A stretch of DNA of 64,000 bases, taken from NCBI GenBank assembly GCA_000146465.1, contig CP001950.1; one strand, written 5' to 3'. This document shows positions 5,943 through 32,408 of the stretch, in pieces. The position numbers and the translations under genes are program-made. The notes beneath the pieces are model-generated. The model saw only the letters and a list, made by a program, of their open reading frames with translations, was not told where the DNA came from and did not search any database. Numbering within the stretch: position 1 is the first letter of the stretch; each line of letters opens with the position of its first letter.

Positions 5943-6667
5943 TCAGTCTACTGTGTACTCAAGCCCGAAGCTTTTTCCATATCCACAGAGCTTCATTGAT
6001 GCGTTGTATGCAGCTCCATCAGTTTCGGAGGAATCACCTGTAGATTTCATCCCCACACAATATAGAAAACACTCCATCGACTCTGTCCTGCTTGCTCTTG
6101 GTTTCAGTAGAACCACTCCATTATAGAATCTCCTGAAGTGGTTAATCATCCATTCTGTGTACTTTCCTTGGAGACACTTGCCCACAAATGAAGAGCCTGG
6201 CTTTGAAATCCTCAAGGAAGCGCTAAGTGCAGACATCAGCAACTCTATTTGGAGATACTCATCTATCTCATGGATTCCGGTTATGTCCGGAGCTCCGTCA
6301 CACATTACAAGGTCTGCCAGTACTCCTTCTAGAGCCTCTACTATACTCCGTAAGCACGAGTCTGAAGTTATATCGCCCTTAATGCACACCACACCCTCCA
6401 TCGGGACAATGTCCTGGACATCCACAGACACTATTTTTGGACATCCCTCCTTGGAAAGCAGCCTTTCGGATGCATACTGAGACCAGCTTCCCGGCGCCGC
6501 ACATAGATCAACACACTTTCAACTCCCTCAAACAGATTGTACTCCTCGTCGATATCAATGAGCTTGTACACGCTTCTGGCTCTGTACTTGTTCTTCTTTG
6601 CAAGTCTGTAATAGACGTCTCTTTTTTCTTCTCCATCCATTCCCGGGGACAAAAACCACATTGCCAT
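5943..6667 (-). CDS. FtsJ/RrmJ-type 2'-O-ribose RNA methyltransferase (Trm7/FtsJ1-like) with an apparent 1-nt frameshift near 6505-6516
   Basis: The N-terminal ORF (6431..6667) reads DVYYRLAKKNKYRARSVYKLIDIDEEYNLFEGVES. The continuation CVDLCAAPGSWSQ...DLVMCDGAPDITG...LLKPRASRTESMECF lies in another frame (ORF 5943..6431). Hand translation of all three frames across 6481..6530 shows the SAM-binding motif VDLCAAPGSW is only in-frame after a +/-1 shift. Confidence 0.65.
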
Positions 6668-6966
6668 TGCACCTCATACTTTGGGCCAAAAAAGCCCCTA
6701 AATGTTTAGTCTGATGTCTGTTGTGTACGGAGTCCTGTTTCTCTTGAACTCCATAGTTATACTCGACGAAAAGAGATTTCTGTCCAGAGTGGGCCTTCCC
6801 TTATCTCCAGAAGCCAGAGGCATCCTTGGCCCAAGCCGTAAGAAGGTTGTCGACTTGATCAGAGCGATCAAGACCGTAATGAAGATTCCTTTAATAGTGT
6901 TGAATATAATGTGTATAACATACGAGGTATTTCTTGGATAGAAAGGAGGAGTGGATTCTGTTTATT

Positions 6967-7581
6967 TCACAGAGTATCGCTCAGATCATGGCAGTCTATC
7001 TCGAACGAAGCGTCGCCGTCCTTGTCGGATTCCTCGGATACCACTGCATTGTTCCTAAATAAATCATTGGAGTCTAAAGCCTTTTCATTTATCTTGTGGA
7101 TTCTTTGTATCTCTTTGATGTAGTTCTTGTCATAACAGCAGTTTCCCAGTGAGTTTCCGAACTGCCTCAGAGCCCTCTTGAGAGCATCCGTTGCTGCTTC
7201 TTTCTTTGCTTTTTCATATGCAATGGCCTTGGATTTCTGGTTTTCCGAACTCCCAAACCCGATGTCTTCTCTGTATGTTCCATCCTTGAGCATGACCCTA
7301 ACTAGGCAAGATACCCCCAGCCCAATCTTCTTGTCCCCTCCCTCTTCATAATCAATCGTCATGCTCCGTATTTCCGACGACCAGCCGTTGAATCCAAAAA
7401 TCCGGTTTGCCAGGCTTATGGCCATCCAGCCCTCGACATATGCTATCTTCGACATGTTAAACCCAGGCCTGTAGCTGATAAACTCCGGCCCAAGCTTTTG
7501 CCTGAGAAGTTTCGATATCTTCTTTGCTTTCTTCTTACTAAAAGTACCGGGTCTCCAGCTCCTTGGTTCTCCTTCTTGCAT
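6967..7581 (-). CDS. RAD52: RAD52 DNA recombination/repair protein (N-terminal RAD52 domain)
   Basis: LGPEFISYRPGFNMSKIAYVEGWMAISLANRIFGFNGWSSEIRSMTIDY...VRVMLKDGTYREDIGFGSSEN...KKEAATDALKRALRQFGNSLGNCCYDKNY matches the conserved RAD52 core. Start taken at Met of MQEGEP; the upstream part of the track ORF overlaps the next gene. Confidence 0.8.
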   Translation of the reverse strand: MQEGEPRSWRPGTFSKKKAKKISKLLRQKLGPEFISYRPGFNMSKIAYVEGWMAISLANRIFGFNGWSSEIRSMTIDYEEGGDKKIGLGVSCLVRVMLKDGTYREDIGFGSSENQKSKAIAYEKAKKEAATDALKRALRQFGNSLGNCCYDKNYIKEIQRIHKINEKALDSNDLFRNNAVVSEESDKDGDASFEIDCHDLSDTL

Positions 7582-7650
7582 AATACCCCTTAAAGGACTG
7601 CATTTCCGAAACAAGAACAAATAAATATTTCCTTGGTAGGGGTAACAAAA

Positions 7651-8166
7651 ATGGATCCTCTCATGAGTGCGTTCAAAGCAAGAGAAAGTAAAACATTTTA
7701 CAGCCCAATTCCACATAAGTATGAACAGATGTTCAAGCCAAAAAAATATGATCTAGAACACTTCGGACTGACTTTCTTCCAACGTGCAGTATGCTTCTCT
7801 GCATGCCTTGGGGCCGGGATTCTTTCGTTCCTCTACAGCATGATCAAGATAGTCCGCCTCTCTCCATCTGGGTTCATTCTTCCATACACAATCTCAAACT
7901 TTCTGTTCTTCATTATGTTTGGGTTTCTGCTTGGCTTCAGATCCTATCTCGAAGGCTTGTTCTCTAAGAAGAAGCGCATCCACAGCTCATGGTTTATTGG
8001 CTGTACACTTCTGACCCTCTATGTTGTCTTGAAATACGACAGATACCTCCTCAACTTAGTATTCTGCTTCGTCCAAGTGACGTCGTTCATCATGTTCTCC
8101 TTGACCTTCATTCCCGGAGGAACCTCGGGTATGTCCTCCATGGTCAATATGTTCTTCAAGAAATAA
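7651..8166 (+). CDS. SFT2-like vesicle transport protein (four TM)
   Basis: Four hydrophobic segments with SFT2-family spacing (FFQRAVCFSACLGAGILSFLYS, ILPYTISNFLFFIMFGFLLG, GCTLLTLYVVL, FVQVTSFIMFSLTFIPGG). Confidence 0.55.
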   Translation: MDPLMSAFKARESKTFYSPIPHKYEQMFKPKKYDLEHFGLTFFQRAVCFSACLGAGILSFLYSMIKIVRLSPSGFILPYTISNFLFFIMFGFLLGFRSYLEGLFSKKKRIHSSWFIGCTLLTLYVVLKYDRYLLNLVFCFVQVTSFIMFSLTFIPGGTSGMSSMVNMFFKK

Positions 8167-12840: not shown

Positions 12841-13992
12841 TTAATGGACTTCGGCGACTGTTTCTGCCTTCTTTGCTCCGTAGAATGCCTTCTTCTCTGC
12901 ACTTGTCTGGAACCGCCCATGTCCTATCTTCGACGATGTGTCGACAAACTTGATCACAAGCTCCTCGCTCGGCCTCTGCTGTGTAAGACTCTTTCGAAGC
13001 GTCACAACCCTCTTCCGTGGCCCGACAACCGCCCCCTTCACCATGATGAAGTCGTTCTTCACTTCTCCATAGTGAGGGAATCCTCCCATCGGCGAAATCG
13101 CCTTCTCGGTTAGGTCAAACTCAGTCTTGATCTTGGTGCTTCCATTTCCAATCATGTACACCCTCTTGTTCTTCTCTGTTCTTCTATGGAACCCCATCTG
13201 CCCTGCTCGTGCAACAGAGTACATCACACGGCTCGGATGCCATGCTCCAATGCATGCAACCTTTCGGATCCCCTTTCGAGACTTGCGCGGCTGCTTTCGT
13301 ACTCCAAACCTCTTCACTGTTCCTTGGAATCCCTTTCCCTTCGTCACCCCAATCACATCGATGTTCTCATTCTCTCCAAACACCTCTGCAATCTGGATCT
13401 CCTTCTCAAGCCTCTCCAGAGCCCACTCAACCTTCTCGCAGATGCTTCCTCCATTCAACTGTATCTCCGCGATGTGTGCTTTCTTCAGCCCAAGTGTCTT
13501 CACCATCTCCGGCTGTGTCTGAACAAGTACTCGCACACACTCTGCCCTCTTCTTGATCTCTTCAACCCGGGACTCCGTCACTTCTCCTCGGCAGAACTGG
13601 GCCGCCGCCTCCTTCTCCATGTACTTGTTACCAAACATCCTGCGGAGAACTCCATCGTTCACATAGGATACCGTGACAATCGGGAGTCTGTGCAGTCCAG
13701 TCACAGTCCTCTCATATCCCACAATCCCATACACAACCATCGGCGGTGCTTCAACCACAGTCACTGCATCCATCACCTCCCTAGAAAGTTGCTTGTTCTT
13801 TGCAACCTGGGTCTTAGTCCTTATCACATGTGTCATCCCTGCCTTGTACCCCATAAATCCAGTCAGATGCACAGGCTGGGAGATATCGTCAGCCGGAAAC
13901 GCCCCTACAGACGGCCTGATTGTCTTCGATCTTTTCCTTGGGCAGAACTGCAAAGATCCATGTCTCGGTGCGTTGAACTTCCTGCAGCTCAT
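12841..13992 (-). CDS. RPL3: 60S ribosomal protein L3 (uL3)
   Basis: [22 protein letters not shown]...[13 protein letters not shown]...[18 protein letters not shown]...[13 protein letters not shown]. Full-length match to uL3. The annotated ATG at 13992 is preceded by the AAATTT+CCC promoter motif. Confidence 0.95.
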
Positions 13993-18937: not shown

Positions 18938-19128
18938 TAAGGCCAGGTTCTTCCAATCGGAGCTTTATGCTTTAAGGGGTCACCTTCGATTCGGCCTGGT
19001 AATAAAGGAGAATATGCTTTATCTGCTGTGTTCTTTAAGTTCTCTTCTCAAGCCCAACACATGCCCTGAAGCCCAAAATAGATGCCTTCCAGTCCTTAAG
19101 CCCAATATTACGCTATCTCAAGGCCAAC
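18938..19128. repeat. periodic T[TC]AAG[GC]CCAA-like motif array in the divergent intergenic region between 18266..18913(-) and GPI8(+)
   Basis: ttaaggccagg (18938), ttaaggggtca (18972), tcaagcccaac (19048), tgaagcccaaa (19067), ttaagcccaat (19096), tcaaggccaac (19118), spaced about 19-30 nt apart. Confidence 0.5.
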
Positions 19129-22059: not shown

Positions 22060-23571
22060 TTGTTTGTACAGATGGAAAACACAAGATGGATAAAAGCTGA
22101 AATTAAAAATGTAAACGATGGCTCTGTAGCCAGAGAAGTCTTGGCCAACGAGACAAATTCCTTTGTCAGAGAACTCAATCACTATGAAAAAAATCTTAAG
22201 GATATTCTTGAAGAACTAGAGAATCAAAACATAACTAACAAGGAAGAAGGAATTTCGTCCGTTAAGAAAGCCTTGGAGGTGTTAGAAACTCTTGAAAAAG
22301 ATGTCAGCTCAGCAGTTCCTGAAGAGACATCTATTTGGACGAAAGACTTTTTCAAAGCTGTTGATAGACTAAGAGATAGTTGTAATCTATCACTCAAGTC
22401 ACTTGAGGAGGCTCTTGAAAAATTTCTGGCCTATATTGATAATAACTCGGATCTAAAGGGAGATCTTTTGCAGAAGGCCAAGCTCATTCCCCTTCTGTGT
22501 GCATCTAGCAAGCTTAAAGAATTTTCTTCGGGTATAAGGAAGTCGGGGACCAATGCCTTTACGTGGTTTTTTAAGTTTGTTAGAAGGATTCCCGTCGAGA
22601 ATTTCAAGAAGAACATTAACTCGAGCTTAAATGGCCTAAAGGAAAAGATTTGCCGTGTATCTGGATCCCAAAGAGCAACAGGGAAGCAAGAAATCCGGGA
22701 GGCACAGAAGATTGTGGATTCTTTTTTACGCGATGTAACCGAACTTCAGGATGAATATGAGAAAACTCTTGGCCTTCTTATAAGATCGGAGATATCCTTT
22801 TCAGATGCATTTGAGACTATGCAGGGAAAGATAAGTAACTTTGATGGCCACATGAGTGATCTGGAAAAGAAGATTAAAGACATCGAAACAGCTTTCCAAC
22901 CCATCCTTCTTTCCAAGGAATCCCACGAAAGATCGTTGCCTGAAGATAGTTTTCTTAAGAACATATATCTTGTGTTGATAATTGTGTTATGCATACAGGG
23001 TGTTCTCTGGTACACAGACAATGAAAAGTCTTCTGCTGGAACTGTGTGGAACATGGTAGTGTACTCTGTGGCAGTTGTGGGGACGATTCTGTACATGGCC
23101 TGGGTGTGGGGATTTGGCGGAAGGAGATGGACTAGTGCTGCGAGCATGGTACCTATGATGGTTGGGCTTCTGAATTTGGGGAAGAGGGTGAGCTGTGAGT
23201 ACGGGATGGAGATGGCAGGGCTTGGGTTTGTAATGGTTTGTATGGAGAGTCTTGCAAGACACGGGATGTCATCATGGGAGATTTTGGCAGGATTGATCGG
23301 AAATGGAATTGTAGTGATGGGATGGGTCAGTTGGGCTACAATGAGGGATAGATATGGAGAGAGGATGAGCCAGTGGATGTGTGGGGGACTTATTGTGTTT
23401 GGAATTCTCATGGCTGTGATGATGTATATGAAGGAAGGGAGAAATGTGGAAAGGAGCACTGGAAGTTATATGGTGTTTATTATGACAGTGGTTGTTGGAA
23501 CAGCTGTGTCTTATGCATGTGGAAAGGATTACAGACAACTTGCATCTAAGAGAATGTCTCTGAAATCTTGA
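22060..23571 (+). CDS. lineage-specific family protein A: N-terminal coiled-coil/helical region plus C-terminal Gly/Met/Trp/Val-rich multi-TM domain
   Basis: 503-aa ORF, paralogous to 31371..32239 (shared blocks GISSVKKALEVLETLEKD / GINAVKETLDTLRRLKE and DVTELQDEYEKTLGLL / DVTELQDEYERIFGLL). The C-terminal 23000..23560 is strongly G+T-skewed DNA encoding 4-5 hydrophobic helices. Confidence 0.5.
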   Translation: MFVQMENTRWIKAEIKNVNDGSVAREVLANETNSFVRELNHYEKNLKDILEELENQNITNKEEGISSVKKALEVLETLEKDVSSAVPEETSIWTKDFFKAVDRLRDSCNLSLKSLEEALEKFLAYIDNNSDLKGDLLQKAKLIPLLCASSKLKEFSSGIRKSGTNAFTWFFKFVRRIPVENFKKNINSSLNGLKEKICRVSGSQRATGKQEIREAQKIVDSFLRDVTELQDEYEKTLGLLIRSEISFSDAFETMQGKISNFDGHMSDLEKKIKDIETAFQPILLSKESHERSLPEDSFLKNIYLVLIIVLCIQGVLWYTDNEKSSAGTVWNMVVYSVAVVGTILYMAWVWGFGGRRWTSAASMVPMMVGLLNLGKRVSCEYGMEMAGLGFVMVCMESLARHGMSSWEILAGLIGNGIVVMGWVSWATMRDRYGERMSQWMCGGLIVFGILMAVMMYMKEGRNVERSTGSYMVFIMTVVVGTAVSYACGKDYRQLASKRMSLKS

Positions 23572-26683: not shown

Positions 26684-26922
26684 CTTCTAGTCCTTCTATT
26701 CTATAGTCTTTAAGCTGTACTTAATCATCCAACACCCCGAATTTGGAACTTCGGAAATATTCTCCCAACCGGTGCCAAATAGAACAAGAGGTCTTTCTAC
26801 AAGGAGAGGTGGCAGTCCAGTGGAGGATCTCCTCGAAAACTACTTCTAGTTGGGTAGATTCGAGAGTAGCCATTGTTGGCTTGATCCCACCAGACAAAGG
26901 GGCAGGGTAGATCCTATTTCGT

Positions 26923-28545
26923 GTGGGCCCTTTGGATGGAAGGGCCTGGAGAGCAGCGGAGGGCATGTGTTCTCCGGCAATAGAGGGCCCTGGTGAATTC
27001 ATCGAGTTCCTGAAGCCCCTGATGATTGAAAGTCCTGCAATAAAAAAGTTTATTGTTAATTACTTTATTGAACACAGCCAAGAGAACATTGATGATATAG
27101 CAGCCAGGATCGACGGATGTCTTCGGAAGAGGTTTGTGGAGAACGAGGTGGTGTCTGTTGTAAGGTCTGGGGAGTGGGGAAGGATTTCTCGAGTGGCTGG
27201 AGACAGGTATGTTGTAAGCATCCTGTCTCTAGATGGAGGGCGAGAGGAAAGGCTCCACTTTTCGGAGCTTGCAAGGAAGGACATGGCGGGGCGGACGGAG
27301 GTCAAGGGATATCTGCTTGGGATAACAATGGAAACTCCTTTTGGACGGGTGCTGAAGGAGAATGCATTCCGAAGCATAAGAGACTCTGGGGAAGTGATGA
27401 AATGCAAGGTTCCACAGAGCCAGTGCTATGAAGGGAGTTTTGTGTCTCGGAGGGGTGTTGGGGGGACGGAGAGAAGGAAATGGAAGACGGAGAAGGAAGG
27501 GCAAGGCTCGAGAGAGAAGAACGAGGAAAGGGAGACAGAGGGCAGTAGGGCGAAGCGGGCCTCCGTGCGAAAGGAGGGGACGAAGGAGACGAGTGTGAGT
27601 TCGATCCTCTTGGTGGGGCCTTCGCAGGCTCTGGAGATCCCGGGGCTTAGGAAGGAAGATATCGAGCTAGTGATGAAGATCTTTGGAGTGGTAGCAAACT
27701 TCGGGGGGTTTTTTGGGATCCAAGAGATTGATGTTTTGTCGCTAGGGAGGGCTATTGTTGATCCTTGGTATGAGGATGATACGATATGCAAGATCCATTT
27801 GAAGCTGATCTCTGGACTTCGGACAGAAATGGATTCTGTGGGGATGGAGGAGTTTGTGGAGAACAGCAAGGCATGCATTGAATGGGCCAAGGAGCAAGGA
27901 AGGGAGGAGGATTTGGCTGGAGATGGGGGGGAGATGGAGGAGTGTCTTGAACAGTCTCTGGGCTGTGGGGAAGAGGGCTGGAAGAAAGACCTAAGGAAGC
28001 TTATTGAGAGTATTTGCGATGATGGGGACACAGACATTTTTGGTATTGTGAGGAGCATCTCTGGAAGGAGCAGGGCTCTTGGGAGGGGAGAGATAAGAAA
28101 GAGGCTTGTTGTGATTGAGCTGCTGATGAACATGTTCTTTACAACAGAACAGTTCCGAGAGATTATATGGGAGAAGATGGAGGAGTCGAAGGATCTTGAG
28201 AAGAAGAAGAGGGAGCTCCAGACAAGGCTTAAGAGGAGTGTGGGATGGGATGGAGAGAGCAAGGAGGCAGGAGAAGGCTCTCGAGCCGAGATGGAGAAGG
28301 AGCTTGGGGACACAAGAGAGAAGATATTCCAGCTTCCTGTGAATACTGGGGTTGGAACTGTGGATGGGGTTGGGCTTCTTCATCTTGGGAGGAAGATCTA
28401 TGCAGCCTGGGAAGGAGACTACTATTTGGTGGGGAGAGACAGGCTGGCAGATCTATGTAAGAAATATAAGGCAAAGAACAAAGAGGAGAGACATGTGCTG
28501 GAAAGCATAGGACAGAACATAGAAGGGTTGAAAGGCCATCTTTGA
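26923..28545 (+). CDS. hypothetical nuclear protein with possible DDT domain (ISWI-accessory-like) in a purine/GC-rich block
   Basis: 540-aa ORF. IPGLRKEDIELVMKIFGVVANFGGFFGIQEIDVLSLGRAIV resembles a DDT domain. The N-terminal barrel-like segment VVSVVRSGEWGRISRVAGDRYVVSIL is followed by charged low-complexity. Confidence 0.4.
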   Translation: MGPLDGRAWRAAEGMCSPAIEGPGEFIEFLKPLMIESPAIKKFIVNYFIEHSQENIDDIAARIDGCLRKRFVENEVVSVVRSGEWGRISRVAGDRYVVSILSLDGGREERLHFSELARKDMAGRTEVKGYLLGITMETPFGRVLKENAFRSIRDSGEVMKCKVPQSQCYEGSFVSRRGVGGTERRKWKTEKEGQGSREKNEERETEGSRAKRASVRKEGTKETSVSSILLVGPSQALEIPGLRKEDIELVMKIFGVVANFGGFFGIQEIDVLSLGRAIVDPWYEDDTICKIHLKLISGLRTEMDSVGMEEFVENSKACIEWAKEQGREEDLAGDGGEMEECLEQSLGCGEEGWKKDLRKLIESICDDGDTDIFGIVRSISGRSRALGRGEIRKRLVVIELLMNMFFTTEQFREIIWEKMEESKDLEKKKRELQTRLKRSVGWDGESKEAGEGSRAEMEKELGDTREKIFQLPVNTGVGTVDGVGLLHLGRKIYAAWEGDYYLVGRDRLADLCKKYKAKNKEERHVLESIGQNIEGLKGHL

Positions 28546-28567
28546 CTGTCTGTTTGTTTATGATGTA

Positions 28568-30010
28568 TTGGAAGGGGTTTTATCTGTGAGTAAACAACCA
28601 ATACAAATGGAAAGGCAGAGATTTACAAACCTGCTGAAGGATGGAGAGAGAGGGATTCCTCCGGAGTACAGCATGAGCTTGGGGAAACACTCTGTGACTG
28701 TGCGGAACCTAAAGAAAAAGTATCTTATAAACAAGATTACATTGCTAGACATCTACAACTACTACAGAACCCCGTTATCGGTATACACATCACAGAAGAT
28801 CAGGAACATGTTCGTAACGGCATCTCTGTGTCTTACTGTGTATCTGGCATCGAACATAGATTCAATCAGAAGCAACAAGATTCCGAGGCTTGGAGTAAAC
28901 TTCTCGTCTGCAGCCCTGGTTATTGGCGGGGTGTTTGTTGGCAGGGAGGCGATTTCGTATGCGATCAACTTCAGGAAGATGGTGTCTATATTCTACATGT
29001 ACAGATACATTCTGGAGAGAGACATGGAGGAGATCCGGTTCAAGGATGTTGTGTCGGGGATGATCAAGCTGGAAAGAGAGGTGCACAACAGAGACCTGGA
29101 GGAGAAGGATGTGCGGGACATTGTGAACCATAACAGGCTACTCCTTCTGTTGATGATGAGGAAGTTTCCTTCGATATTCCGGCCGGCATGTTCCAGGTTC
29201 CTGCTGCACATCCTCCATGGCTACATCCACAGAATAGAAGAGGGCCCTGTGGAAGAGCTGGGAGACGAGATCCGGGTGGTTTCGATTGGAATCTTCATAT
29301 TGTCCCCGGCGATTTCGATCTTCTTTATTCTGTACTACATTGCAAAGATCATAGAAAAGTCCCAGAGCAATATGTTCTATGTGTTCAAGAAGTCCCACAG
29401 GCCGTGGTTCAAGTACATGATGGCCAAAAGAAACGAGTATCCACACGAAACACACAGGAAGATACAGAAGGGAGCTGGATATCTAAACGGATTTTTTCTT
29501 TCAAGAAAGAGAGACTGCATCCCAAGGGTCTGCTCTGGGATCTCGTTTCTTCTGAGCTGTCTTGTGTTTCTGGTTGGATATCTTATTCTGAGCATCTTGG
29601 TTGCATCCAAGCCAAACCTGAGCCAGAGCCTTTCCCAGGATATAACTGTCTTTGGGAGGACAACAAACATAGTGTATCTCTCGTACCTCATGGGGGGAAT
29701 ATCCTGCTGCCTGAGATGTCTCAGCATCGAGTATGGGGTTTCGAACCGTCGAAAGATGTTTGCCAAGTGGTGTGTGCTGATGGAGCAGACGGAGGTGCTG
29801 AAGTACTGTGGAAGGCGGGGATCCCTTGAGGCGATTATGTCGAAGATCTTTGTTCCGCGTATATATTTATTTCTTGTAGAGATAGTGTCTCCATTTATTG
29901 TTCCTTTCCAGTTGGAAGGAATGAGAAGGAGGTTGGAGAGGATCCGGCAGGAGTTTGAATCTGTGGGGGAGGGGGAGTACGACAGGCGGGTCTCGATCCT
30001 TGATCTATGA
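28568..30010 (+). CDS. polytopic membrane protein, weakly Atg9-like
   Basis: LLDIYNYYRTPLSVYTSQKIRNMFVTASLCLTVYL resembles the Atg9 core LDxFLxxVYxYYxGxG...L; then FKDVVSGMIKLEREVHNRDLEEKDVRDIVNHNRLL (compare Atg9 W.EV..RI..LQ......LDAHDIANRIMRKENY). Multiple TM helices. The assignment is tentative. Confidence 0.4.
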   Translation: MEGVLSVSKQPIQMERQRFTNLLKDGERGIPPEYSMSLGKHSVTVRNLKKKYLINKITLLDIYNYYRTPLSVYTSQKIRNMFVTASLCLTVYLASNIDSIRSNKIPRLGVNFSSAALVIGGVFVGREAISYAINFRKMVSIFYMYRYILERDMEEIRFKDVVSGMIKLEREVHNRDLEEKDVRDIVNHNRLLLLLMMRKFPSIFRPACSRFLLHILHGYIHRIEEGPVEELGDEIRVVSIGIFILSPAISIFFILYYIAKIIEKSQSNMFYVFKKSHRPWFKYMMAKRNEYPHETHRKIQKGAGYLNGFFLSRKRDCIPRVCSGISFLLSCLVFLVGYLILSILVASKPNLSQSLSQDITVFGRTTNIVYLSYLMGGISCCLRCLSIEYGVSNRRKMFAKWCVLMEQTEVLKYCGRRGSLEAIMSKIFVPRIYLFLVEIVSPFIVPFQLEGMRRRLERIRQEFESVGEGEYDRRVSILDL

Positions 30011-30037
30011 CGGGAGGAAACACGGCATGGATCATAT

Positions 30038-31171
30038 TCACAGATTGATTTCTTTGTGGGGTTCCAGAACACCCAGGTCTCGGAGCTTGTCGCTCACCAC
30101 AGATGCCTTGACAACATACTTACTTCCAAATCTTCTTACAAGCTCTCCGAGATCTTTACAGCGAAGAAGCTCTTTTTCAAGTTCCCCCAAAAGCTCTTCG
30201 GGAAATACTTCGCGCTCTACTAGTGGAAGAGAAATCCAGGAGGAGCAGAATGACGGAAATATAGTAAACTTACAGGAAGGAAATCCAAGACATGGCTTCC
30301 GACATGTTCTAGATGGCTCCATCCTTTCCGAATCCAACTCTATCCATTCACAACTACTTTCTTCCTCCGAAGATTCCTCTTCTGTGCTTTCAATAACTTC
30401 TGCATCCTCGCAATCTTCCCAATCAGAATCTTCCTCGTAGTCTAAAACTTGTGGAAGCCTTGTAAGGCTGTTTTTCACATAATGTTTCTGTCCTCCAAAT
30501 CCATAGAGAGGTGGCCTAAGCTGGTTGGAAAATTTGATGAAGGATAATCTTCTTGGATCTTGAATGTCTTTTCTTATGCGTATTGTGGAACTGAGAGGAC
30601 TCGAAGGCATGCTGACTGCTGTCTCCTTGTCGAAGCATATTGGGGAAAATAGTCCAAGCATATCCGCCGAAGGCTTCTTTATGCCTTCTACCTGAATAAA
30701 TCTCAGCATACCAGAAGTGTTTGCTTCTTCTTTTTCTGTATCTCTCTCCAAGCCAGAAATCCCTTTATCTTTAGCTTTTTTCTTTCTCGCTCTCTTCAAT
30801 AGGCTTCGAACACCTTTAGAGATTCCATCAAGGCTCTTAAGAAAGTATATATTTCCCTCTCCACTTACTTCCACATCGAAATTGGACTCAACAGCCTTCT
30901 TCAGACTATTTACTCTGTCTTTTCTCCTCTTCGACGTTTTTTTATACGAATATAGGATTTTGTCCATCCAATAGTAGTCCACCTTCTGCTTCCCTTCTAC
31001 TAGGAGAGCTATAAGATCTAGAGGAACCTCTTCTTCTCGTCCTCTCTTCCACTCATGCAGAATCTTTAGCACTTCCGGATGGAATAAAACATCCGTAATC
31101 ATAAAAAGGATAAGAATAAAACAATATAAAGATATTGGGAAGATACAATGGCAATATGTTCTTTCTACCAA
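30038..31171 (-). CDS. chromatin assembly factor 1 large subunit (CAF-1 p150/Cac1-like)
   Basis: RPPLYGFGGQKHYVKNSLTRLPQVLDYEEDSDWEDCEDAEVIESTEEESSEEESS matches the CAF-1 p150 block RPAYYGTWRKRSK...LLDYEVDSDEEWEEEEPGESL (ED domain). A K/R-rich KER-like segment lies upstream. The true start may be the internal Met (31102). Confidence 0.55.
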   Translation of the reverse strand: MVERTYCHCIFPISLYCFILILFMITDVLFHPEVLKILHEWKRGREEEVPLDLIALLVEGKQKVDYYWMDKILYSYKKTSKRRKDRVNSLKKAVESNFDVEVSGEGNIYFLKSLDGISKGVRSLLKRARKKKAKDKGISGLERDTEKEEANTSGMLRFIQVEGIKKPSADMLGLFSPICFDKETAVSMPSSPLSSTIRIRKDIQDPRRLSFIKFSNQLRPPLYGFGGQKHYVKNSLTRLPQVLDYEEDSDWEDCEDAEVIESTEEESSEEESSCEWIELDSERMEPSRTCRKPCLGFPSCKFTIFPSFCSSWISLPLVEREVFPEELLGELEKELLRCKDLGELVRRFGSKYVVKASVVSDKLRDLGVLEPHKEINL

Positions 31172-31370
31172 ATACTTCCCATCATACCCACAGTTTCATG
31201 GGGATTATATGAAGGATACCCTGGCTCTTCCCCTTCTTTAGACAAGAATAAGCATCCAACTAAAAGCCCCTCTTCAAGTTCCGGCCCCTTTAAAGCCAAA
31301 CCGCCAAGGATGTTTTTACTAAACAGTTGTCCACTATTCTTATGATTCCCCTTCTAATTGGCCAATTATA

Positions 31371-32239
31371 GTGAGGACTCCCACATACGCTCCAATAGCA
31401 GTGCCCTTAATGAATCATATCAACCGTATCCGAGATATACTCATCAACCTTGATTCACAAAGCTCTCTTCATGAAGAAACAGTTGCAGAATGTGCATTGG
31501 TATATTATTATAATGCTGTAAGTAAGTTTCTGAATGGAATCCTCTTCTATGAGGAGAAGTTAAATGAAGTCTTGGAGTCTTTGAACAACAAGCTCAATTC
31601 ACAGAGTGAAAAGGGAATTAACGCGGTCAAAGAAACTCTGGACACACTTCGTAGGCTTAAGGAGACAATACAACCTAAAATCGAATGTCCTTTTAACCAA
31701 CTTTCTCATCCTCCAGAACTAACAAATATTGAAATCCTCGAGTACAACTTCAAAACTTTTGAAGAGTACTTCAAAGCAATCGATAGAATGGTTTCTTCGG
31801 AAGGACAGATTCCATTTGAAGAGTTCAAGGATGCACTCAGGAATGTCTTGCCATATGTCGATTATCCACTGACCCACAGTACAGGATCCCATTCTATTGT
31901 TCTCAAAAACGTATTTCTTCAACTCTTGGGGGAGTATAATGTCTCTGCTGTATTTGAAAATACCTGTCTCAATAAGTATTATGAAAACTTAAGAATAATA
32001 GGAAGAAAAGTTCTCCAGAAGCATTTTGAATCTCTCATAAAAAGTCTTGTCTCAGAAAACTGGAAAAACGAAATAGAAAAGGAACTAAGTGCTTTGGAAA
32101 GGGAGGTATCCCTGGCGTATAAACATCAAAGGAAAAGAATAGAACAAGGAATCCAAGATGCTCGAGCTGTCTTAAACTCCCTTTCTCAGGATGTAACCGA
32201 ACTTCAGGATGAATATGAGAGAATTTTTGGCCTTCTTAT
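31371..32239 (+). CDS. lineage-specific family protein B (paralog of 22060..23571), 3' end lost in assembly gap
   Basis: The N-terminal helical region is collinear with family member A. The ORF runs into the N-run at 32240. Confidence 0.45.
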
Positions 32240-32339
32240 NNNNNNNNNNNNNNNNNNNNNNNNNNNNNNNNNNNNNNNNNNNNNNNNNNNNNNNNNNNNN
32301 NNNNNNNNNNNNNNNNNNNNNNNNNNNNNNNNNNNNNNN
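32240..32339. other. assembly gap (100 N)
   Basis: Run of exactly 100 n characters. Confidence 0.99.
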
Positions 32340-32408
32340 CAGGTCTCGGAGCTTGTCACTCACCACAGATGCCTTAACAATATACTTGTAGGATATGTAT
32401 TTCTTCAT
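32340..32408 (-). pseudogene. duplicated 3'-terminal fragment of the CAF-1-like gene (copy of 30074..30121)
   Basis: 32340..32387 matches 30074..30121 at 45 of 48 nt. It encodes ...KYIVKASVVSDKLRDL, identical to the C-terminus ...KYVVKASVVSDKLRDL of 30038..31171, then diverges. Confidence 0.5.

Follow-up and report, generated by a model that had tools for sequence, protein, structure and literature searches.

A one-base gap in the Trm7-type tRNA methyltransferase gene of the 2010 Encephalitozoon intestinalis assembly, very probably a consensus error

Trm7, acting with the partner proteins Trm732 and Trm734, 2'-O-methylates a few tRNAs at C32 and N34 of their anticodon loop. Yeast mutants deleted for trm7 grow slowly and are viable, and loss of human FTSJ1 leads to intellectual disability, not to lethality. 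An initial annotation of the locus described here had presented the enzyme as normally essential, which overstates its importance. The residues of the K-D-K-E tetrad of these methyltransferases are catalytic, as established from RrmJ.

The window that we analysed is a stretch of 64,000 nucleotides of chromosome IX of the 2010 assembly of Encephalitozoon intestinalis ATCC 50506 (Corradi et al., PMC4355639). It carries a gene of the FtsJ/Trm7 type among genes for deoxyhypusine synthase, a HEAT/condensin-like protein, Yos1, Rad52 and Got1, with very short spacers between them. Exact-sequence look-ups identified neighbouring proteins as ADM12216.1 and ADM12215.1 (Eint_090860) of ATCC 50506. The Yos1 gene (6702..6941) is located 61 bp from the start of the Trm7-type gene. 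For Rad52 and Trm7 the longest ORFs exceed the annotated genes: the Rad52 ORF of the window (6967..7716, minus strand) encodes 249 aa versus 204 aa annotated in newer assemblies, and an in-frame ATG at 6667 (MAMWFLSPG; 6641..6667, minus strand), unused by curated annotations, lies upstream of the Trm7 start. Another ATG upstream of the Trm7 start, at 6661, serves as the start codon in an automatic gene call (P0122, 239 aa).

A Trm7-type gene split between two reading frames

The gene occupies positions 5943..6640 on the minus strand and switches frame between LFEGVESV and the SAM-binding motif VDLCAAPGSWSQ. The initial annotation had placed it at 5943-6667; the start codon as annotated is the ATG at 6640 (MDGEEKRD...), not that at 6667. 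On translation, frame 1 of the minus strand reads MAMWFLSPGMDGEEKRDVYYRLAKKNKYRARSVYKLIDIDEEYNLFEGVESV, then LIYVRRREAGLSMHPKGCFPRRDVQK, up to a TAG stop at 6433..6431. From the ATG at 6667 this frame runs through ...DVYYRLAKKNKYRARSVYKLIDIDEEYNLFEGVESV, and past GVESV the residues LIYVRRREAGLSMHPKGCFPRRDVQK are unrelated. Frame 3 opens past a TGA (6521..6519); its translation is KCVDLCAAPGSWSQYASERLL...EYTVD up to its stop, with its end at 5943, and KCVDLCAAPGSWSQYASERLLSKEGCPKIVSVDVQD... is likewise read up to this stop. The overlap of the two frames spans about 85 nt (6518 to 6434). Because frame 1 is readable through GVESV and frame 3 opens only after the TGA, the shift must lie inside the minus-strand interval GAAAGTGTGTTGATC (6520..6506). 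This confirms the change of frame that the initial annotation had located at 6505-6516.

The single-base shift proposed there could be assigned to one position. When aligned with four other E. intestinalis sequences, the window proved to lack one T between 6513 and 6512 on the minus strand: it has AGTGTGTTGAT where the other DNA copies have AGTGTTGTTGAT. The base belongs to a TT pair (AGTG-TGTTGAT in the window) in the codons GTT GTT, which encode Val43 and Val44. On the plus strand, AACACAC in the window stands against AACAACAC in the intact copies. The gene is consequently 698 nt long in the window versus 699 nt elsewhere (232 codons plus stop).

The gap at 6512..6513 separates two segments, which we delimited by translation and by alignment to 8y2o_B and 6jp6_B. 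The N-terminal segment (frame A, residues 1-43, 6514..6640, minus strand) holds the first lysine of the catalytic tetrad, K26, in RARSVYKL. The C-terminal segment (frame B, residues 44-232 plus stop, 5943..6512, minus strand) holds VDLCAAPGSWSQ and the other members of the tetrad, D115, K155 and E190. Translation that starts at the ATG at 6640 and continues out of frame past the gap ends at the premature TAG (6431..6433, minus strand) and would give a product of 69 aa. The window version has K26 in one frame and the SAM loop with the remaining D, K and E in the other; a single continuous ORF for the whole FtsJ domain is absent from the window and present in every other E. intestinalis sequence examined.

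Insertion of one base (...GVESVVDLCAAPGSWSQ...) yields a protein of 232 aa. Against the Pfam FtsJ profile (PF01728), the restored protein scores 165.2 bits (E 2e-48; curated cut-off 24.1), and the match covers positions 1-180 of the 181 in the profile and crosses the frame junction. A match that is nearly full-length and spans the junction is not a resemblance by chance. Of the solved structures, human FTSJ1 (8y2o_B, E 2e-60, 207 bits) and yeast Trm7 (6jp6_B, E 4.5e-46, 160 bits) match the restored protein best. The paralogues score well below these, with about 110 bits and about 1e-30 for Spb1/FTSJ3 and 96 bits and 1.6e-26 for MRM2, and so does E. coli FtsJ (9e-22). The highest-ranked named database matches are Trm7/FTSJ1, in agreement with the NCBI name of the intact protein. 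The restored protein contains VDLCAAPGSWSQ as its SAM-binding glycine-rich loop, and its residues K26, D115, K155 and E190 align with RARSAFKL, CDGAPD, FVAKIF and S(I/L)EAF, respectively, of 8y2o_B and 6jp6_B. All the motifs that the initial annotation had ascribed to an FtsJ/Trm7-type gene are thus found and aligned. On the strength of these similarities, the gene is the Trm7 orthologue, nearer to Trm7/FTSJ1 than to Spb1/FTSJ3 or Mrm2, and its product would by homology methylate C32 and N34 of tRNAs.

The first ATG 3' of the shift (6401) begins a remnant ORF of 152 aa (MEGVVCIKGD...TVD; 5943..6401, minus strand), which is an exact-sequence match to ADM12217.1 / XP_003073577.1, an entry located on a record of 233,397 bp. 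This remnant, named 'tRNA methyltransferase', is all that the 2010 GenBank/RefSeq annotation retains of the gene. It contains neither K26 nor the SAM-binding motif and could not be active. The N-terminal fragments of 78 and 69 aa have no entry in the protein collection by exact-sequence look-up and have thus been annotated by nobody.

Intact copies in E. intestinalis and its sister species

Over all 232 aa, the restored protein shows 100% identity to P0001, the sequence shared by UTX46025.1, KAL7345044.1, KAL7346990.1 and KAL7348939.1. UTX46025.1 originates from the 2023 telomere-to-telomere assembly of ATCC 50506, a strain identical to that of the window. At the DNA level, the site of the missing base was read by motif extraction in seven loci corresponding to four independent sources, in addition to alignments and a table of differences. 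The sources are the telomere-to-telomere assembly of ATCC 50506 (L017; CP075166.1, 268,753 bp, GCA_024399295.1), the draft assemblies JBLUPJ of ATCC 50507 (L012) and JBLUPL of ATCC 50651 (L001, L008 and L011), and a Logan-assembled contig of the unrelated public run ERR13302946 (L002 and L009). The assignment of the two draft accessions to isolates follows PMC12697097; no mention of run ERR13302946 was found in the literature. All four sources have CTGTTTGAGGGAGTTGAAAGTGTTGTTGATC where the window has ...AAGTGTGTTGATC. The remaining KAL protein record is presumably accounted for by ATCC 50603, which is covered at the protein level only.

The copy of the same strain is the most direct comparison for the window. 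In L017 the locus is arranged as in the window, between deoxyhypusine synthase and Yos1/Rad52, and the gene and its flanks are otherwise identical; it differs by one additional T (GTT GTT), which makes the ORF continuous. This copy reads AGTGTTGTTGAT and translates to an uninterrupted protein of 232 aa. Similarly, the alignment of L001 with the window over the gene and its flanks comprises 6,699 columns, with 0 mismatches and one gap, and the DNA of the gene is the same in L001, L012 and L017 but for this gap. The initial annotation had held that a base restoring one continuous ORF would mark a plain sequencing error. At the level of assemblies, such a base is seen in the same strain, in two other isolates and in an independent run. 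It had also proposed to look for an intact frame in related genomes: the orthologues of E. cuniculi, E. hellem and E. romaleae are intact and read ...VVDLCAAPGSWSQ... in a single frame. These proteins of 237-238 aa are 72-74% identical to the restored protein across their full length.

These copies bear on the idea that the window shows a species-level pseudogene, E. intestinalis having lost a functional Trm7 through genome reduction. Microsporidian genomes are highly reduced, and the 2010 RefSeq proteome has only the 152-aa remnant, both of which would fit such a loss. Against it, the intact 232-aa record is found in four later annotated E. intestinalis assemblies, and intact DNA was read in three of these four and in one independent run. 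The identity of 72-74% to the sister-species orthologues extends over the full length of the protein, and the window copy bears no other lesion: no second change of the kind seen in decaying pseudogenes was found over the 6,699 positions compared with L001. A lesion that is neither common to conspecifics nor joined by further disabling changes is not that of a decaying pseudogene, and loss of the gene at the level of the species is extremely improbable.

We also considered a short intron that would restore the frame. The only GT...AG across the site delimits GTTGAAAG, at 8 nt much too small for an intron, and the intact alleles differ by a simple one-base change; an intron is thus ruled out.

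Accuracy of the 2010 assembly and origin of the gap

For the 2010 genome, half a GAIIx lane yielded 31-bp paired reads, which Velvet assembled at a hash length of 19 and at 40x into 137 scaffolds; nested PCR, cloning and Sanger sequencing then served to validate and join the breaks (PMC4355639). The 2023 genome was based on Nanopore, PacBio and Illumina data, and Pilon was applied to it repeatedly until the sequence was unchanged (PMC10158259), and the three draft isolates were covered at 303-361x with 151-bp Illumina reads (PMC12697097). The main text of the telomere-to-telomere paper says nothing on Trm7/FtsJ or on frameshift corrections relative to the 2010 assembly (PMC10158259).

To place the gap among other differences, we tabulated those between the window and loci covering 61,782 of its approximately 63,900 determined bases. 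The gap in the FtsJ gene is the sole indel in the 61,782 bases compared, and at this position every other source contradicts the window. The possibility that the window is riddled with indels in general was rejected on this count. The other differences are about a dozen substitutions. One, at 18980, occurs in ATCC 50651 alone. The gene for ribosomal protein L3 (12841..13992, minus strand) has three within about 210 bp, at 13458, 13471 and 13670, where the window departs from the telomere-to-telomere assembly of its own strain; at two of the three, ATCC 50651 agrees with the later assembly. Three more, at 22855, 23232 and 23298, cluster in a gene of the repeated DUF1686/InterC family (22060..23571) and set it apart from its versions in the later assemblies, plausibly because reads from paralogues were mixed when the short reads were assembled. 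Within this gene, the 50 bp at 22732..22781 have 94% identity to 32190..32239, which lies immediately ahead of an N gap. The remaining ones, at 26687, at 28358 and four at 30072..30115, are found at or within a duplicated block.

This block adjoins the gap of 100 N at 32240..32339. The 5.5 kb ahead of the gap (26706..32239), which comprise DUF5097, ATG9, Eint_091150 (a gene with a CAF1A domain) and the first part of a DUF1686 gene, match a second DUF5097-ATG9 copy with 9 mismatches in 5,534. On the telomere-to-telomere chromosome, that second copy is found at a distance of about 60 kb (L014; CP075166.1, 82-91 kb), where it is followed by Eint_091150 and the DUF1686 gene in the same order as in the window. 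At the position of the window, the later assembly has ATG9 followed directly by a gene with Fer4_RLI and Ribo_biogen_C domains. The junction is marked by an imperfect repeat of 48 bp (30074..30121 versus 32340..32387, 45/48 identical). The 2010 scaffold thus looks chimeric at a segmental duplication of about 3.4 kb. The chimeric join and its N gap are 24 kb from the Trm7 lesion. The 2010 consensus is good overall, with demonstrable local errors.

The deletion is present in the 2010 assembly and nowhere else among the sequences compared, and the gene of the same strain is intact. Regarding its origin, the slip of a single base in the 2010 data is much more likely than a concordant insertion across independent later data sets. 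We infer a technical cause rather than a mutation in the 2010 DNA: the frame break is very probably an error of the 2010 consensus, already corrected in the 2023 assembly of the same strain. The real E. intestinalis gene is a continuous ORF of 232 codons, from which the 2010 consensus would have dropped one T of GTT GTT, Val43-Val44, giving rise to an apparent frameshift. The base may have been lost either during the early short-read assembly or during patching by PCR and Sanger sequencing. Two points count against such an error. A lone indel in 61,782 bases is also what a single private mutation would look like, and the site is a TT doublet, not the long homopolymer that is typical of base-calling indels.

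The private mutation would imply that the 2010 spore preparation, from lab-passaged ATCC 50506, truly carried a one-base deletion inactivating Trm7, either fixed in the culture or as a variant chosen by the assembler, and that the later ATCC stock is without it. The otherwise high accuracy of the window consensus (one indel in 61,782 bases) favours such a mutation, as do the few same-strain substitutions (13458, 13471, 13670), which show some divergence between the two DNA sources or between the consensus sequences obtained from them. The tolerance of yeast to the loss of Trm7, at the cost of slow growth, points in the same direction. On the other side, the same strain designation is intact under three technologies, as is the gene in all other isolates and in the retrieved Encephalitozoon orthologues; no decay accompanies the lesion, and the method of 2010 was error-prone (31-bp reads, k=19, cloned PCR patches). 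A genuine mutation in the 2010 preparation is therefore unlikely. It is slightly less likely still that the 2010 line of ATCC 50506 was viable with its only Trm7-type tRNA methyltransferase gene reduced to a null allele; if it was, this minimal eukaryote would be able, in cell culture, to do without 2'-O-methylation of the anticodon loop.

With a consensus error as the preferred explanation, the biological weight of the frameshift is very small: E. intestinalis possesses an ordinary, intact Trm7 gene, the feature is nothing new biologically and its correction is already public. The consequences concern data quality. The 2010 RefSeq proteome under-represents Trm7, of which it lists only the 152-aa XP_003073577.1, and comparative studies that rely on it could mistakenly count Trm7 among the truncated or lost genes of the smallest eukaryotic nuclear genome known. 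The preferable reference is the telomere-to-telomere assembly of 2023.

Comparison with frameshift sites and with Trm7 and FTSJ1

Full-length Trm7 could in principle be made from the two frames of the window by recoding at GTG TGT T, through a programmed -1 ribosomal frameshift or transcriptional slippage. The overlap of the frames over about 85 nt would allow it, and a -1 shift after GTG gives the conserved ...ESVVDL... However, the gene is in one frame in all other E. intestinalis sequences and in the three sister species, and a single frame in the intact allele means that recoding is neither needed nor conserved. The signals expected for recoding are lacking as well. Read from the sequence, the site GAA AGT GTG TTG ATC contains no slippery heptamer of the X XXY YYZ type, nor is there an A/T homopolymer run for polymerase slippage at the shift site. 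The 117 nt downstream of the site do not form a particularly stable structure: their folding energy is -35.2 kcal/mol versus a mean of -32.65 +/- 3.33 kcal/mol for shuffled sequences (z -0.77), and 47 of 200 shuffles fold as well. With slippery site, stimulatory structure and conserved two-frame layout all missing, we attach almost no credence to recoding. Among the origins contemplated by the initial annotation, namely assembly error, pseudogene and programmed frameshift, the first is thus strongly supported, and the other two are contradicted by the intact conspecific copies and orthologues and by the lack of recoding signals.

The window site resembles the -1 frameshift sites of retroviruses, coronaviruses and dnaX in geometry only, in that its overlapping frames can be joined by a -1 shift. 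It differs from them by having no slippery heptamer, no stimulatory structure and no conserved two-frame arrangement.

The closer likeness is to Trm7 of S. cerevisiae and human FTSJ1, with which the restored protein shares a full-length FtsJ domain, the SAM motif and an aligned K-D-K-E tetrad. Unlike these proteins of 310-330 aa, it comprises 232 aa and, as in the other Encephalitozoon orthologues, most of the C-terminal extension is absent. In the window alone, the gene also differs from Trm7 and FTSJ1 in being broken by a one-base gap.
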